Source of the DNA: an uncultured Candidatus Saccharibacteria bacterium
Lineage (GTDB): Bacteria; Patescibacteriota; Minisyncoccia; Phycocordibacterales; CAIZLB01
Assembly (NCBI GenBank): GCA_964368945.1
Contig: CAYJDM010000005.1
Location: 22,699 to 86,698, forward strand
Length of the DNA: 64,000 bases
Direction: 5' to 3'
The notes under the pieces were generated by a model. The model saw only the letters and a list, made by a program, of their open reading frames with translations, did not search any database and was not told the DNA's origin. A program made the position numbers and the translations under genes. This document shows, in pieces, positions 26,511 to 42,760 of this stretch (the stretch's first letter is position 1; each line of letters begins with the position of its first letter).

Positions 26511-26661
26511 ACTTAAATTTTATCTCTTATTTGCTGGGAGAGAAGGAATCGGACCTTCATTGAGAGCTTCAAAGGCTCCTGTCCTACCATTAGACGATCT
26601 CCCAATAGATTTGTCAATACCCACTCAATCGAGGGGAATATACGACATATCGCCCACTACT

Positions 26662-27792: not shown

Positions 27793-28287
27793 TCAGCAGC
27801 ATTCGCATGGAACCAAATGACATTTGGTGCAACGGGGCTTCTTGCGTGGGCGAAGCTCATCGTTCGGAATCATGGCGTCTCGTGCCGCATTCAGGAACTC
27901 GGCGACTGTCATGCCGCCTTCCATGGATGCATCTTCCTCCAGATCATCTAGACAGGCAAACACGGTTCGCCAGCCTCCCTTGTCGAGCCTCACGGCCCGA
28001 AATCCCGGCAGGCAGATCATCTGCCAGTAATCTCCGAGGTCAGTGGATGCCTCGGCCTGAATCGGCTTGAAAGCATGAGCATAGATCAGACAATGATCCC
28101 GCACCGTTGACGATCCGCCCAAGATCCGAAAGAGGCCTGCGGCCAGTTCCTTTATCGTGTCTTCAGGCTTGAATAATCGCGCGATACGCGGATGGATTTC
28201 GCCTATCAATTCCCGATCTGTCAGGAAAGCGGCTTCTGCGACTGGTGTTGGTGTTGGCATGGTTCGAGTATCGCCCTCGCCCATCAT
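27793..28287 (-). CDS. Island gene C: hypothetical protein with C-terminal CxxCx4CxCC zinc-knuckle-like motif; paralog of gene B
   Basis: ORF with ATG-ATG start. C-terminus PRCTKCHLVPCECC. Shares the GW..FAC block (RLDKGGWRTVFAC) with gene B (RIKNSGWMQLFAC). Confidence 0.5.
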   Translation of the reverse strand: MMGEGDTRTMPTPTPVAEAAFLTDRELIGEIHPRIARLFKPEDTIKELAAGLFRILGGSSTVRDHCLIYAHAFKPIQAEASTDLGDYWQMICLPGFRAVRLDKGGWRTVFACLDDLEEDASMEGGMTVAEFLNAARDAMIPNDELRPRKKPRCTKCHLVPCECC

Positions 28288-28373
28288 GGACAAGAACTTG
28301 TTTTGGCGATATGCGGATCAGCGATTCGCTGCCATATGCGCAGCACGAATCCCTATCCCGCATATCGCCAAAA
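28266..28373. repeat. Regulatory repeat element copy 1: half-site TATCGCCCT, then inverted repeat TTTTGGCGATATGCGG ... CCGCATATCGCCAAAA (41-nt spacer containing the palindrome CAGCGA-T-TCGCTG)
   Basis: Seen directly. 16-bp perfect inverted repeat at 28301-28316 / 28358-28373, plus an upstream degenerate half-site at 28267-28277. Confidence 0.6.
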
Positions 28374-29237: not shown

Positions 29238-30026
29238 TCAGCTCGCGGGCATCGATTCAACGGCCTCTACGCGCGGATGGTATTTTTCGAGTCCGAGTGC
29301 TACGAGCGTGCGACAAGCGCATGGCTTATTTCCGCAAGCCAGGCAGCCTTTTCCATAAAAATGGTCGACGGCTGTCGCAAGATCGATCTCGAGCATCGAG
29401 GAAATGGCGCAAATCCACGTGAATACATCCGCAAGCTCCTGAGCATAGCTATCGGCAATGTCATCCGACGTATTGAGCGGCTGCGTCGCATCGATCTCCA
29501 GCATCGCCACTTCGGACACTTCAGAAAAAAGCCGATTGAGCACGCCTTCGATTCCTGCCGCTTGATTATGCGCGCCATATCTTTGACGCAGCGTCTGCTG
29601 CCACATCGATATGCTCCATTCCAATTGCGCAGGATCGATCACGCTTTCGCATGGATTTTCCGATCGCGCCTCAGAGGCGCATGTGCATGGATCCGAGTTG
29701 CAGTACCCGCATTTGTTCGCAGGAAATTTCCGGCAGAGCGTCTCATTGAAGGGAAAGCCGGCATAGAATCCGTCGATGAAAGCCATCAGCCTCGAAAAGA
29801 GCGAAGCGCATGCCTTTCTCAAGACATGCCGATCTCGCTTCTTGCGAATGCAATCGTGAATATAGCGCACTGCCTTGAGCAGGAATGCGCCACGCTCGAG
29901 ACGGCTCCGCATGAGCAGGGAATTCTTCTTGCCGTATATTTCGGCGAAATGGGCCTGCCATGCATCGATTCCATACGTAGTTTTGTCTGTGGTTTCCGGT
30001 GTCGGTATCGCTGAAGAAGATTTCAT
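29238..30026 (-). CDS. Island gene A: tandem all-alpha MazG-like nucleotide pyrophosphohydrolase-like protein; each half ends in a CxxCx4CxC motif
   Basis: The second half aligns to small MazG/YpjD-type NTP-PPases (LFSEVSEVAMLEI; ELADVFTWICAISSMLEIDLATAVDHFYGK). The first half is a degenerate copy. Cys motifs are CGYCNSDPCTC and CLACGNKPCAC. Alternative TTG start at 30041. Confidence 0.55.
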   Translation of the reverse strand: MKSSSAIPTPETTDKTTYGIDAWQAHFAEIYGKKNSLLMRSRLERGAFLLKAVRYIHDCIRKKRDRHVLRKACASLFSRLMAFIDGFYAGFPFNETLCRKFPANKCGYCNSDPCTCASEARSENPCESVIDPAQLEWSISMWQQTLRQRYGAHNQAAGIEGVLNRLFSEVSEVAMLEIDATQPLNTSDDIADSYAQELADVFTWICAISSMLEIDLATAVDHFYGKGCLACGNKPCACRTLVALGLEKYHPRVEAVESMPAS

Positions 30027-30085
30027 TCGCGCTCCTTTCAATGCCTGTATGAGGCGGTTGGATGTTGAGGATGTGTAGTGAAGAA

Positions 30086-31285
30086 CTATTCCTTCAAGAT
30101 CACAGTACCATTAAAATGAGAATCTGTAAATGCCTCAATGATGCGTCGCACATCCGCAGCATTCTCTGCTTTTTCCATCAATTCCATGCGCAATTCCTTG
30201 GCGCCGTCGAATCCGTTTATATATGCCTTGAAGTGCTTTTTCATTATGGCGAAATTCTTGATCGCGCCGAGATGCTTTTCGAATAGCTCAGTGTGGCGGA
30301 TTGCCATCTGCAAACGCTCTTCGATTGTCGGATTATGCGCGGCTGCTGATGACCAGTCGGCATTTTCGCCGGCCTTCTGTTCGTCATTGCCTTTTTTAAT
30401 ATAAAAATTATTCAAACCGCTCCATAGCCAAGGATTGCCGAATAGCGCGCGCCCAAGCATGGCTCCATCGGCTCCCTGCTCCGCCGCTTTCTCCAAACCA
30501 TCTGGCACAGAAACGATATCTCCATTGCCCATGATGAGCGTGCGGTCGATAGGCGCGAGCTCAGCCTGAATCTGATCGCGGATCGCGACAGCTTCGCCGA
30601 CATGTTCCCATCTCGCAGGCACGAGCGACATTTCCTTGCGCGTTCGCGCATGAATAGTGATCGCGGCTGGATGCGCTTCGAGCAAAGCAGGCAGCCAAGT
30701 CGCCAATTCATTTTTGCCATAGCCGATTCGCGTTTTTACCGATACGGGAATCGGCACGCTTATGCCATCAAATGCATTGCGATCAGATGCGGGAGATTTT
30801 CCATCTTCAAAAGCGCGCTTCGCACCGGCCTGCGCAGCGCGAATGATTTCCTGCGCGCGCTTCGGATTCTTGATCATGCCCGCGCCAGCACCCTGCTTCT
30901 CGATTGATTTGTCAGGGCACCCCATATTGATATCAATGCCATCAAATCCGAGCGTCGCGACGAGATATGCTGCCTGCTCCATATATTCAGGATTCGATCC
31001 GAACAATTGCGCGACGATCGGATGCTCGGTCGGGCCGAACAAAAGATCCGCCATCAGCTTCGCCTTCCCTTCCGGAGTAGCGCGCACGATGCCGTCGGCA
31101 GAAACGAATTCCGTCCACATCATATCCGGATTGCCGCATTCGGCGATCAATGTTCGAAAAGCCACATCCGTAACATCCGCCATCGGCGCAAGGACGCTGA
31201 GCGGACGGCCAGGTCGAATAACCTCGCCAGTCGCGATGTCTTTGCCATCGATGATTTCAGTTTTTAGCTTTTGCCAGACATGCAT
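30086..31285 (-). CDS. dus: tRNA-dihydrouridine synthase (Dus family)
   Basis: SVLAPMADVTDVAFR, TIM-barrel FMN motifs, and the catalytic Cys region (GIDINMGCP). Start set at the internal ATG (MHVWQK). Confidence 0.8.
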   Translation of the reverse strand: MHVWQKLKTEIIDGKDIATGEVIRPGRPLSVLAPMADVTDVAFRTLIAECGNPDMMWTEFVSADGIVRATPEGKAKLMADLLFGPTEHPIVAQLFGSNPEYMEQAAYLVATLGFDGIDINMGCPDKSIEKQGAGAGMIKNPKRAQEIIRAAQAGAKRAFEDGKSPASDRNAFDGISVPIPVSVKTRIGYGKNELATWLPALLEAHPAAITIHARTRKEMSLVPARWEHVGEAVAIRDQIQAELAPIDRTLIMGNGDIVSVPDGLEKAAEQGADGAMLGRALFGNPWLWSGLNNFYIKKGNDEQKAGENADWSSAAAHNPTIEERLQMAIRHTELFEKHLGAIKNFAIMKKHFKAYINGFDGAKELRMELMEKAENAADVRRIIEAFTDSHFNGTVILKE

Positions 31286-31351
31286 ACTATATGTATAAAA
31301 CCCTCCGCCTTTTTCAATCACAATACCAAACGATCGCAGGATTGTATATAA

Positions 31352-31495
31352 AAAAATGTGACCCGTCCCCCACAGGGTGAGGACGGGTCGTGCTGGTCGA
31401 TGCATGGGGCTACGGATTTTCGCTCAGGCTTGATGCCGTCGCTAAGTCTATTCAATTCGCAGCCGGCCATGTCCTTTGGACATTGTCGGCAGCAC
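31352..31495 (-). ncRNA. Candidate ~140-nt small RNA or attenuator leader upstream of dus (promoter to terminator)
   Basis: Minus-strand near-consensus promoter TTGACT-16-TATAAT (plus-strand coordinates 31524-31529 / 31502-31507). It is followed ~110 nt later by hairpin GACCCGTCC...GGACGGGTC (31360-31389) plus a U7 tract. No ORF fits inside. Confidence 0.35.
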
Positions 31496-31501
31496 ATAAG
31501 T

Positions 31502-31529
31502 ATTATAGCATAGTTGCAATAATAGTCAA
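31502..31529 (-). promoter_or_regulatory. Near-consensus sigma70-type promoter (TTGACT-16 nt-TATAAT) on the minus strand
   Basis: Hexamers read directly from the reverse complement of 31502-31529. Confidence 0.5.
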
Positions 31530-31636
31530 TAGGCATTTTATCTAGAAAAAAACGCCTACAAAATTCGTATTTCCATGCTAAAATGGCGTCTTAAAACTTT
31601 TATATAAATAAAAACGTTCAACAGAACACAGCACAT

Positions 31637-33043
31637 ATGGCAAGCAAACCAAACCAGACAAAAGCACCAGCGACGAAGGCTCCCGCAGCGAAGGCGTCGG
31701 CGAAAGCCGCACCAGTAGCCGGACTTTCCCCTATCAAGACAATCATGGGCCGAGAAATTCTCGACTCGCGAGGAAATCCGACTGTGGAAGTCGATGTCAC
31801 TCTCCGCGACGGCTCATTCGGACGAGCCGCTGTTCCATCAGGAGCATCCACAGGATCATATGAAGCGATCGAGCTTCGAGATGGAGACAAGAAGCGATAT
31901 CTCGGAAAGGGCGTGCTCAAGGCCGTAGCGAATGTGAATGGCCCATTGCGAAAGGCATTGGTTGGAAAATCTTTTACGCAGGAAACTCTCGACCGAGCAA
32001 TGATCGCGCTTGATGGAACTCATAACAAGGCAAAGTTCGGAGCGAATGCAATCCTCGGAATCTCAATGGCTTTCTCACACGCAGCTGCGAAGTCAAAGAA
32101 GATGCCTTTGTTCAAATATTTCGCTCAGATCGCAAAGACTGGCAAGCCGATGTCTCTCCCGCTTCCGATGATGAATATCTTGAACGGAGGAAAGCATGCT
32201 GAAAAGTCTACGGACCTTCAGGAATTCATGGTCATGCCTGTCGGCGCGAAGTCTTGGTCTCAGGCTTTGCAGATGGGAGCTGAAGTTTTCCATGCTCTCA
32301 AGAAAATCCTTCACGATCGAGGACTCGGAACTACGACTGGCGATGAAGGAGGATATGCGCCGTCTCTCGGAAATAATGAAAGCGCGCTCAAGGTCATCCT
32401 CGAGGCGATCGAAAAGGCCGGATACAAGCCTGGAAAGGATATCGGAATCGCAATCGATGCCGCTTCGACTGAATTGTACAAGCCAGGCGAAGGAAGCGTT
32501 GCCGGCGAATCAAAGAACGGCACATATGAGCTCGCATCAGAAAAGCGAACTCTTTCTACGCCGGAAATGGTTGCCTTCTATGCAGACTGGCTTACGAAGT
32601 ACCCTATCGTCTCTATCGAGGACGGATTCTCAGAAGACGATTGGCTCGGATATGAAATGCTTACAAAGCAGTGCGGAAAGAAAGTTCAGATCGTCGGAGA
32701 TGATCTTTTCGTAACGAATATCGACCGACTCAAGACTGGCATCGAGCGAAAGGCTGGAAACTCCATCCTCATCAAGCTCAACCAGATCGGTTCAGTCACT
32801 GAGACAATCGACGCTATCAAGATGGCACATAAGGCCGGCATGACAGCAGTCGTCTCTCATCGATCAGGAGAAACAGAGGACACGACAATCTCTCATTTCG
32901 TCGTCGGACTCGGATGCGGACAGATCAAGACCGGCTCACTCTGCCGAACTGATCGAGTCGCGAAGTATAACGAACTCCTCCGAATCGAAGAGCAATTGGG
33001 TGCGAAGGCGGTGTTTGCTGGAAAGGGCGCGTTTAAGGGTTAG
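31637..33043 (+). CDS. eno: Enolase (phosphopyruvate hydratase) with a 25-aa Ala/Lys/Pro-rich N-terminal extension
   Basis: [27 protein letters not shown], and the catalytic motifs ([20 protein letters not shown]). The N-terminal [29 protein letters not shown] precedes the canonical enolase start. Confidence 0.9.
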
Positions 33044-33108: not shown

Positions 33109-33416
33109 GGTCCTGCGACCAATCAATCATGGTTTGCATTGAGCTGGCGCGCGCCACCATCGCACTATGGTCCCTGGCGGTCGCGGCGTGAATTTCTTGA
33201 CAGAACCAGGCTTGCGCGCCCTCAGTTGCTTGCCGAATTTATTAGCCAATCGGGCGGCGGTTCTGCGGAAGCTTTCCACAGCTACCGCTTTCTTGTTTGA
33301 TTCCAGTTTTTTTGACACGAGTTAAGAGTGGTTTGAAGTTAGCATCCCCTTTCTCAAAGAAGTTGAGCTTTCCTGCCAATAACGATATTCTTAAGTTACG
33401 AAAAAAGCAAATGAGT

Positions 33417-33452
33417 TAGCCGCCGTCCGGGAGTTCCGGGCGGCGGCTTTCT
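33417..33452. repeat. Repeated palindromic terminator-like element, copy 1 (GAGttaGCCGCCGTCCGGGAGTTCCGGGCGGCGGCTTT)
   Basis: 7-bp GC stem plus inner CCGG pairing. U-rich flanks on both strands. A near-identical copy lies at 33958-33993. Confidence 0.55.
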
Positions 33453-33468
33453 TTGTTTGGTCAGATTC

Positions 33469-33879
33469 CTACGGTTGAAATCTGCCCATCAATCTCGATA
33501 TAGCTGTCGTAGTTGCTGAAGTAAGATTCTTTTCTTTCGACTGTCTTCTTACTTCTTCAGATGCTTCCGACGAGCATTCGATCTGGCCTTCGCGATTAGT
33601 CCTGGCAACAATAATCAATTGCCCGCCTTGACGCATCAATGTCAGATGCTGCCGCTCGAAAAAACCAGCAGGATCGAGGCCGCGCGCGACGAGCGCATTT
33701 TCCTTTGCCTGGCCCAAGATGACCCGATGAAGAGTATCGTCATCCTTGTTGCAGCAAACATATCGGCCAGAGACGACGCTTTTGGGCTTTTGGCCCGATG
33801 AGGGGCCTTTGCCTGCTGGCAGGGCCTGTTCCCTGGTCTTCGGTATTGGCCATCCACGATAGTGAGGGTACTTGCTCAT
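33469..33879 (-). CDS. Hypothetical protein (136 aa) in a gene-poor region
   Basis: ORF ending 17 nt before repeat copy 1. No recognised domain. A C-rich CCCCAACCCCAACCC motif lies 5-30 nt upstream of its ATG. Confidence 0.35.
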   Translation of the reverse strand: MSKYPHYRGWPIPKTREQALPAGKGPSSGQKPKSVVSGRYVCCNKDDDTLHRVILGQAKENALVARGLDPAGFFERQHLTLMRQGGQLIIVARTNREGQIECSSEASEEVRRQSKEKNLTSATTTAISRLMGRFQP

Positions 33880-33957
33880 ATGCTGGGTTTCGGGTTGGGG
33901 TTGGGGTTTGACTTATTCCTGCCGACATCATGCCATAAGAATATGGAAAAAAGAAGT

Positions 33958-33993
33958 GAGCCGCCGTCCGGGAGTTCCGGGCGGCGGCTTTGT
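33958..33993. repeat. Repeated palindromic terminator-like element, copy 2
   Basis: GAGCCGCCGTCCGGGAGTTCCGGGCGGCGGCTTT. Its core is identical to copy 1 over ~34 nt. Confidence 0.55.
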
Positions 33994-34037
33994 TCTAATC
34001 TTTCAGGCTGCTGTGCTGTAGAATTCCGGGCTTTTTT

Positions 34038-41764: not shown

Positions 41765-42550
41765 TTATTCCTTAGGCACGCCATGGAAAATCCTCCAAAT
41801 GAGATGATTGATCTCATCGATCAGCTTGAATCGATGCGTCGGTTTTTCTTTTTCCGAAACAGCGATCGTGGCCGCAGGCTCTGGTTTTGGCTCAGGGTCA
41901 AGTGTCCATTTTTCGCCATTGGTAATTGCAAGGAAGCGCAGGAACGGCAGGCTTTCAATAGACTCGGGACCGTAAACGGATTGCCGCATAGGAGTAAAAT
42001 GCGTATCGGCAAAATTGCCAAGCGCATAATAGTTTCGAGGATCAGTGACACGATCCATCATCGAAGAATCTTTGAAGGCGGCGCCAAAGTAGATATCGGC
42101 AGTCGGACGGTCGGACTGACCATGCGAAGGCAAACAAATGGCGACATATAAAAGATTCCAAGGCGACGAATTGTAACGACCGCTCCTAAGCTTACGATAG
42201 AGGCAAACCTTGACACTGTATGTTCCGCCCAGATAACTGGTGACGGAAGGCCCGTACATGACCCAGGAACCCTGTGCGTGGACGATACAGGTCTGAATAA
42301 CCCCCTCCTCGCAACCTTCTGGCGTTGCAGTTTCCCATTCCTCAAGAGGCATTGCCGGCTTCACGACACTCGTATTGGGCTCATCGCCATCCATCCACAC
42401 CTGTACATCGCAATGATGATAGAAGTGGATGGAGATTTCGTCATGCAGGGCACATGTGCGCTGTTTTACTGCAAGACGTGCGATTTCGAGGGCTGTCGTG
42501 ACCGCGGAGGTGTGGACCGCTTTGCTTTTCGTTGTATTTTGTAGTTTCAT
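41765..42550 (-). CDS. Hypothetical protein (261 aa) with a long structured 5' leader
   Basis: Clean ORF with its own promoter and terminator. No recognised domain. Confidence 0.5.
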   Translation of the reverse strand: MKLQNTTKSKAVHTSAVTTALEIARLAVKQRTCALHDEISIHFYHHCDVQVWMDGDEPNTSVVKPAMPLEEWETATPEGCEEGVIQTCIVHAQGSWVMYGPSVTSYLGGTYSVKVCLYRKLRSGRYNSSPWNLLYVAICLPSHGQSDRPTADIYFGAAFKDSSMMDRVTDPRNYYALGNFADTHFTPMRQSVYGPESIESLPFLRFLAITNGEKWTLDPEPKPEPAATIAVSEKEKPTHRFKLIDEINHLIWRIFHGVPKE

Positions 42551-42585
42551 TTTGACACAATCAATGTGCTAACGACCAGACGCTC

Positions 42586-42629
42586 TTACCTGGAAATCCA
42601 GCACCTCAGCATGAGGTGCTGGAAGGTAA
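42586..42629 (-). promoter_or_regulatory. Long interrupted hairpin in the 5' leader (TTACCT gg aaa TCCAGCACCTCA gca TGAGGTGCTGGA AGGTAA)
   Basis: 12-bp perfect stem plus 6-bp outer stem. No U-tract. 37 nt before the start codon. Further small hairpins lie upstream in the ~165-nt leader. Confidence 0.4.
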
Positions 42630-42730
42630 TAACGCAGACCGTTGTTGCCATCAAGACAACGCATTAGAAGCATGCGAATGTATCCAATGCATTGTCCTGA
42701 AACTGCAACCAGTGAAAAATCTCCTTTACA

Positions 42731-42760
42731 ATAATACCACATATATATGGTATTTGTCAA
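42731..42760 (-). promoter_or_regulatory. Sigma70-type promoter TTGACA-18-TATTAT on the minus strand
   Basis: Read from the reverse complement (plus-strand TGTCAA 42755-42760; ATAATA 42731-42736). Confidence 0.45.

Follow-up and report, generated by a model that had tools for sequence, protein, structure and literature searches.

The 351-nt gap between the divergently oriented genes eno and dus contains a unit that is probably an independent gene for a structured small RNA (sRNA) of ~145 nt, non-coding and specific to its lineage. The gap belongs to a 64-kb stretch of DNA (64,000 nt), the whole of which is referred to here as the window; it derives from an uncultured, ultrasmall member of the Patescibacteria (CPR) in the Paceibacteria/Parcubacteria group. 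On the minus strand, a near-consensus promoter, a structured core and an intrinsic terminator follow one another in the same orientation as dus, and the same unit is present at the same eno–dus position in two related metagenomic contigs, L082 and L083. The initial annotation had proposed that the unit is either an independent ~140-nt sRNA or a leader of dus; the first half of this proposal is supported, with promoter, terminator and fold all conserved and no ORF shared by the three copies. The sequence features that the annotation named were all confirmed at its coordinates. The gap and its borders contain the following features.

31576–31584, plus strand: putative eno promoter, extended –10 TGcTAAAAT, divergent from the RNA gene
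31524–31529, minus strand: –35 hexamer TTGACT of the RNA gene, part of an 11/12 promoter match; TTGAC is invariant in L082 and L083
31502–31510, minus strand: extended –10 TGcTATAAT of the RNA gene; TATGCTATAAT is kept in L083 and L082 has TATGCTATGAT
31352–31497, minus strand: predicted ~145-nt transcript, its 5' end (predicted start near 31497–31494) placed from the position of the –10 and its 3' end from the U-tract
31390–31495, minus strand: structured core, a three-way junction; the three sequences fold alike and RNAalifold agrees
31495–31490 with 31395–31390 and 31488–31486 with 31400–31398, minus strand: P1, in which GUGCUG pairs with CAGCAC and CGA with UCG
31481–31471, minus strand: P2 hairpin GUCC-AAA-GGAC, the portion kept across relatives
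31470–31404, minus strand: P3, a long irregular hairpin of the structured core
31350–31389, minus strand: intrinsic terminator, with its stem at 31389–31360, then ACA, then U7 at 31356–31350
31320–31348, minus strand: putative dus promoter recognized by its match to the consensus, with TATACA at 31348–31343, a 17-nt spacer and TGgTATTGT at 31328–31320
31283–31285, minus strand: likely true dus start codon, giving a 399-aa form; homologues align from residues 1–4

Genomic context and homologues

Enolase is encoded on the plus strand from an ATG at 31637 and matches Pfam families Enolase_N and Enolase_C, while the minus-strand dus product matches Pfam Dus. The putative –10 block of eno is kept in all close relatives. 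A Lys/Ala/Pro-rich N-terminal extension of ~35 aa (31637–31740, plus strand) precedes Enolase_N, and the enolases of close relatives are similar in length (450–469 aa). Just downstream of eno, a 136-aa minus-strand ORF without a Pfam match (33469–33879) is flanked by two copies of a 45-nt terminator-like palindrome, AGCCGCCGTCCGGGAGTTCCGGGCGGCGGCT, at 33409–33453 and 33950–33994; the copies lie 541 nt apart and are 91% identical. On the other side of the locus, two hypothetical proteins encoded downstream of dus (29238–30041 and 27793–28293, both minus strand) have no Pfam match. Both contain Cys motifs of the form CxxCxxxPCxC (CGYCNSDPCTC, CLACGNKPCAC, CTKCHLVPCEC), and the C-terminal part of the 267-aa protein appears MazG-like by eye.

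Within a species-representative genome collection, the best relatives of this Dus protein are found in Candidatus Paceibacterota MAGs and share no more than 63% identity with it; in metagenome assemblies, identity reaches 85%. Closer relatives of the locus were gathered through Dus protein similarity, and in these the eno–dus synteny is kept and the content of the gap varies. An enolase-based search for closer relatives returned two contigs, both of which end before the intergenic region. The RNA unit is located at 2633–2784 in L082 (Dus 85% identical; nhmmer E value 9e-30) and at 2807–2958 in L083 (Dus 81% identical; nhmmer E value 6e-34), and the window copy is about 74–75% identical to each. 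In the spacer that separates the RNA promoter from the eno promoter block, the alignment is of low confidence and is interrupted by long unalignable insertions. That the unit is conserved next to a spacer that can hardly be aligned argues for purifying selection on the unit.

The homologues also bear on the annotation of dus itself. The deposited 439-aa Dus (P0001), which is also the form predicted by Logan in L081, begins with an ATG at 31405, and its additional N-terminal segment (31286–31405, minus strand) crosses the terminator hairpin and U-tract of the RNA. Because homologues support the 399-aa start at 31285, the 439-aa form looks like an annotation over-extension across the terminator of the RNA.

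Promoter and terminator

TTGACT-16-TATAAT was originally pointed out as one of the best promoters in the window, and a scan of both strands of the entire 64 kb agrees, placing it among just two sites that match the consensus at 11 of 12 positions. The –10 hexamer TATAAT (31507–31502) is separated from the –35 hexamer by 16 nt and is preceded by a TG at 31510–31509, which the initial annotation had missed and which makes this an extended –10 promoter. Both of the 11/12 sites carry the TG; block shuffles of the window yield 0.67 sites at 11/12 and 0.03 sites with the TG. TTGAC and TATGCTAT(A/G)AT are kept in L082 and L083, and the unit thus has a promoter of its own, as expected of a stand-alone sRNA gene.

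Two further promoter-like sites were observed. The other 11/12 site with a TG, TTGACA-18-TATTAT (42760–42731, minus strand), is followed by ~180 nt without a credible ORF, which includes the hairpin CCAGCACCTCATGCTGAGGTGCTGG, and then by a 261-aa ORF from 42550; the interval 42550–42760 (minus strand) could correspond to an extended structured leader or to a further small RNA. A 10/12 site, TGGACA-18-TATTAT (31477–31506, plus strand), lies antisense within the 5' end of the RNA gene, points toward eno, and is found in L082 too. This site may be incidental to the P2 hairpin and the –10 box, or it may serve eno as an upstream promoter.

The terminator hairpin, GACCCGTCC...GGACGGGTC (31389–31360), lies ~105 nt downstream of the promoter and contains 11 base pairs, eight of them G-C. 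The GC-rich hairpin at 31360–31389 is as first described, but the UUUUUUU that was said to follow it immediately is set off from it by three nucleotides (ACA). Owing to this 3-nt offset between stem and U-tract, some read-through into dus is possible. In L082 and L083, two to three compensatory pairs (A-U to G-C, U-A to C-G, and C-G to A-U) preserve the terminator stem, and the U-tract is likewise kept, so that the unit also has its own terminator, a second property of stand-alone sRNA genes.

Coding capacity

A small-protein gene is a very improbable explanation for the unit. The protein would be either a leaderless, Cys-rich product beginning MCCRQCPKDMAGC (59 aa from the ATG at 31497, or 72 aa from 31536) or the product of an antisense ORF of ~51–57 aa. 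An ATG does lie 5 nt after the –10 hexamer, making a leaderless start conceivable; the ORFs are open in the window, and a gene caller annotated the antisense ORF in L083 as a 57-aa gene. However, a six-frame comparison of the three copies reveals stops and frameshifting indels on both strands and no conserved frame. The sense frame of both L083 and L082 contains TGA at codon 3 and is shifted by a 1-nt indel, and L083 is without a sense-frame ATG. The antisense ORF called in L083 is in turn broken in the window by a stop and a frameshift. The 72-aa Cys-rich ORF at 31318–31536, which had rightly been judged unlikely from the start, is present in the window, yet its frame is not conserved in L082 or L083, and the ORF would have to cross the terminator hairpin. 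No ORF of the RNA region has a Pfam match, and a search of the antisense peptide against 5.8 billion proteins returned only the peptide itself. The frame comparison thus largely refutes a protein-coding function.

Secondary structure and covariation

The predicted 146-nt transcript (31497–31352) has a minimum free energy (MFE) of –56 kcal/mol, with a z-score of –3.84 relative to 200 dinucleotide shuffles. In its core, P1 closes a three-way junction from which the P2 hairpin and the long P3 arm emerge, and the terminator begins directly after P1. The end of the P3 arm carries a conserved motif, GC-AnA-GGC-AUCAA-GCC-UGA-GC, that forms an internal-loop hairpin. The internal hairpin noted at the outset (ATGTCC aaa GGACAT) is confirmed as P2, its conserved part across relatives being GUCC-AAA-GGAC. 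All three homologous sequences, each folded alone, adopt the same architecture.

Comparison of the three copies suggests that the helices have been maintained through sequence change. Counted on an alignment in which one segment was shifted by one position by hand, double compensatory changes affect six of the 48 consensus pairs: one in P1 (G-C to A-U), two in the basal P3 stem (U-A to G-C at one pair; G-C, G-U and A-U at the other) and three in the terminator. Another two of the 48 pairs changed on one side only and still form. Six pairs are disrupted in one of the sequences, and most of these belong to the upper P3 of the window copy. Positions differ in 19% of paired columns and in 39% of unpaired columns. 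RNAalifold applied to the MAFFT alignment predicts the same structure with seven covarying pairs; the broken pairs that it reports at columns 36–40 reflect a one-column misalignment. Since L082 and L083 are nearly identical, the three members amount to effectively two lineages and give the covariation no statistical power, so that its support for a conserved fold is suggestive. The check on conservation and covariation in relatives that was suggested with the original description thus found promoter, terminator and fold kept in both contigs, with six compensatory changes. Invariant positions cluster at the P1/P2 junction (CUGnCGACAAUGUCCAAAGGACA, CAUCGACCAG) and in the distal internal-loop hairpin, not in an accessible linear stretch. 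A contact between AUUGA and UCAA loops may also form.

Relationship to dus

The orientation and position of the unit raise the alternative that it is a cis-regulatory leader of dus, such as a riboswitch or a protein- or tRNA-sensing attenuator, in which a signal at the junction domain would set the balance between termination and read-through. Several features fit this arrangement. The unit has the same orientation as dus, whose start codon follows its end by 75 nt in the window and by about 50 nt in L083, and every RNA-like occupant of the gap in related loci points the same way. The conserved junction core borders immediately on the terminator, a position in which the P1 helices of aptamers are often found. 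The offset U-tract may also leave termination incomplete.

Against these features stand several observations on the region between the unit and dus. First, dus would not depend on the promoter of the RNA, because a putative promoter of its own is located beyond the terminator; a leader would be expected to have no promoter intervening between its terminator and the gene, and here the TGgTATTGT block occupies that position. The conserved block, CGTCTGGTATTGTGATTTT, is found directly upstream of dus in L082, L083, L084, L087 and L088. Among these, L084 and L087 carry it without this RNA, and L088 carries it with an unrelated unit in the gap. Second, L082 contains another structured segment between the RNA and dus (2786–2932, ~150 nt, z = –3.6), with a terminator-like hairpin followed by U6. 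This second segment is possibly driven by TGaTACAAT, located directly after the first terminator.

The best duplexes between the 5' half of the terminator and the core (–8.9 to –14.8 kcal/mol) fall within the distribution for shuffled sequences, and the best antiterminator sites lie at different, non-homologous places in the three sequences. In the MFE structure of the nascent transcript, the 5' half of the terminator is free of pairing, and no leader peptide is conserved. Nor does the motif recur with dus as a riboswitch would be expected to recur with its gene: it is upstream of dus in the three syntenic loci, blastn and nhmmer did not find it at any of the 80 dus loci taken from representative genomes of more distant Paceibacteria, and it is also absent from eight closer loci with dus. 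At most of the 80 distant loci, dus ends a co-directional operon and has almost no gap upstream of it. A leader function, the second half of the initial proposal, is accordingly disfavoured, and we regard it as unlikely, given the putative promoter block of dus, the extra unit in L082, the absence of the motif at other dus loci and the lack of an antiterminator pairing beyond chance.

Comparison with known RNAs

A search of the whole window against Rfam 15 at the gathering threshold identified only tRNA-Gln (26534–26604). When the region 31200–31700 was searched at E ≤10, three chance-level hits were obtained, with scores of 13–18 bits against gathering scores of 49–119. Searches of the eight related loci at E ≤1 found nothing relevant, and the RNA region of L082 and L083 was likewise empty. 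ARAGORN detected no tRNA or tmRNA features in the region. The Rfam/Infernal comparison put forward with the initial annotation thus matches no family and does not reclassify the unit as a housekeeping RNA.

In general features the unit resembles the housekeeping RNAs (SRP/4.5S, 6S, 5S, tmRNA and RNase P), sharing with them a strong promoter, a stable fold and paired 5' and 3' ends, and its size is in a range similar to that of 4.5S, 5S and 6S RNAs. Unlike them, it has no covariance-model hit and is not recognized as a tmRNA by ARAGORN, and its absence from most relatives means that it is not a universal housekeeping RNA. Specific candidates were also considered and rejected. The universal motifs of SRP domain IV are a GNRA tetraloop and an AGCA loop, and both are absent by direct reading. 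The arms of the RNA are too unequal for 5S rRNA. Strings recalling SRP domain IV, a hammerhead core (CUGANGA...GAAA) or TPP-riboswitch-like elements (GGCUG.G, UUGAA) are either not conserved in L082 and L083 or without Rfam support.

Riboswitches that terminate transcription and contain a three-way junction, of which the purine type is an example, share with the unit a compact junction, a closing P1, a terminator directly after P1 and junction nucleotides that are the best conserved. In contrast to these riboswitches, the RNA has no antiterminator alternative, is followed by a separate conserved promoter before the downstream gene, lacks a gene-class association across genomes and has no Rfam match at E ≤10.

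The closest likeness is to generic stand-alone intergenic sRNAs. Such genes have been found in E. coli and other bacteria by searches for promoters and terminators. The unit shares with them a near-consensus promoter, an intrinsic terminator with a U-tail, a length of 100–200 nt, the absence of a conserved ORF, retention among close relatives only and a variable intergenic site. It differs from them in that no exposed conserved seed or target could be found and in that conservation centres on the core of a helical junction, as is more usual for RNAs that bind proteins or ligands. In a crude duplex-energy screen of the region from –60 to +30 of the 89 ORFs of the 64-kb window, the RNA scored no higher than a shuffled sRNA. 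We know of no Hfq or ProQ chaperone context for this lineage, another difference from the generic class. The RNA is probably a new and very narrowly distributed member of this orphan intergenic kind.

We propose that the RNA would be transcribed at a high level from its own promoter, that transcription would end before dus, which would use its own promoter, and that the RNA would act in trans. It would more likely function as a folded binding module for a protein or other macromolecule than as a classical seed-pairing sRNA, because conservation is concentrated in the junction core and the internal-loop hairpin rather than in an exposed linear seed.

Distribution and the variable eno–dus gap

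The known distribution of the RNA comprises three contigs, and DNA sequencing runs that contain the locus are ERR4405439, SRR13208893 and SRR29476927. A covariance model, R1, built from the structured core of the three members scores 97–136 bits on them, and R1, when run over the window together with related loci totalling 656 kb, revealed nothing beyond these members and no paralogue. A metagenome scan with the invariant 19-mer CGACAATGTCCAAAGGACA yielded two matches, both due to chance and inside one protein-coding gene. A scan of viral contigs with GGCATCNAGCCTGAGC yielded more than 120 matches, all due to chance, and none was extended by the profile. Phage and plasmid collections contained nothing similar to the unit.

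At other related loci, the same slot is empty or differently occupied. In L087 (Dus 78% identical) the gap is empty and measures about 170 nt, and in L084, L086 and L092 it holds unannotated protein genes without a Pfam match. An origin of the RNA by decay of the protein genes present in this slot at other loci was considered and rejected, as no similarity was found. Still other loci have RNA-like units with a promoter and a terminator. L091 (1110–1300; Dus 75% identical) contains an unrelated unit of ~150 nt with the promoter TTGACA-17-TGgTATCAA, two hairpins and a terminator; the z-score of its fold is –5.8. In L088 (1655–2200; Dus 71% identical; identical in L089 and L090), a unit of ~500 nt is devoid of ORFs, has a strong terminator and folds with a z-score of –4.9. 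Its promoter region (CCTATTGACAAT...TGCTATAGT) resembles that of the window, with a marginal nhmmer match (E value about 0.02–0.06). Rfam and tmRNA searches found no match for the L088 unit, which may be an unknown large structured RNA.

This setting brings up another alternative, that the unit is non-functional or selfish DNA, a recent fragment such as a mobile-element remnant or a decayed gene that carries promoter-like and terminator-like sequences by chance and appears conserved only through close kinship. Its very narrow distribution over three contigs would be compatible with such an origin, as would the hotspot character of the slot, which holds different cargo in each lineage. We nevertheless consider this explanation improbable, about as much so as a leader function. 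Conservation of the unit far exceeds that of the neighbouring spacer in the same intergenic region, substitutions in its stems are preferentially compensatory, and the promoter hexamers and the TG are retained. Comparison with phage and plasmid records, with the proteins encoded in this slot at other loci and with Pfam families revealed no similarity, and no flanking repeats were noticed.

A more speculative idea, which draws on a handful of loci and which we hold to be improbable, is that in this Paceibacteria clade the eno–dus gap could serve as a dedicated cassette site that swaps unrelated, strongly promoted and terminator-capped structured RNAs. The candidates for such cassettes are the ~145-nt RNA, the second unit of L082, the ~150-nt RNA of L091 and the ~500-nt RNA of L088, all of which are co-oriented with dus.

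Significance

Searches of the literature yielded no described natural regulatory or structured sRNA for Patescibacteria/CPR bacteria. The family is tiny, and its immediate impact is modest as a result. For annotation, the consequences would be the shortening of an over-extended 439-aa Dus and the removal of a spurious 57-aa ORF that was called on the RNA in a relative. As a delimited gene, the RNA would be a concrete candidate for metatranscriptomic validation and a seed for a new RNA family. If the eno–dus gap were indeed a cassette site, this would suggest that these ultrasmall episymbiotic bacteria have a rapidly evolving function based on RNA, perhaps in host interaction, defence or the control of tRNA modification.
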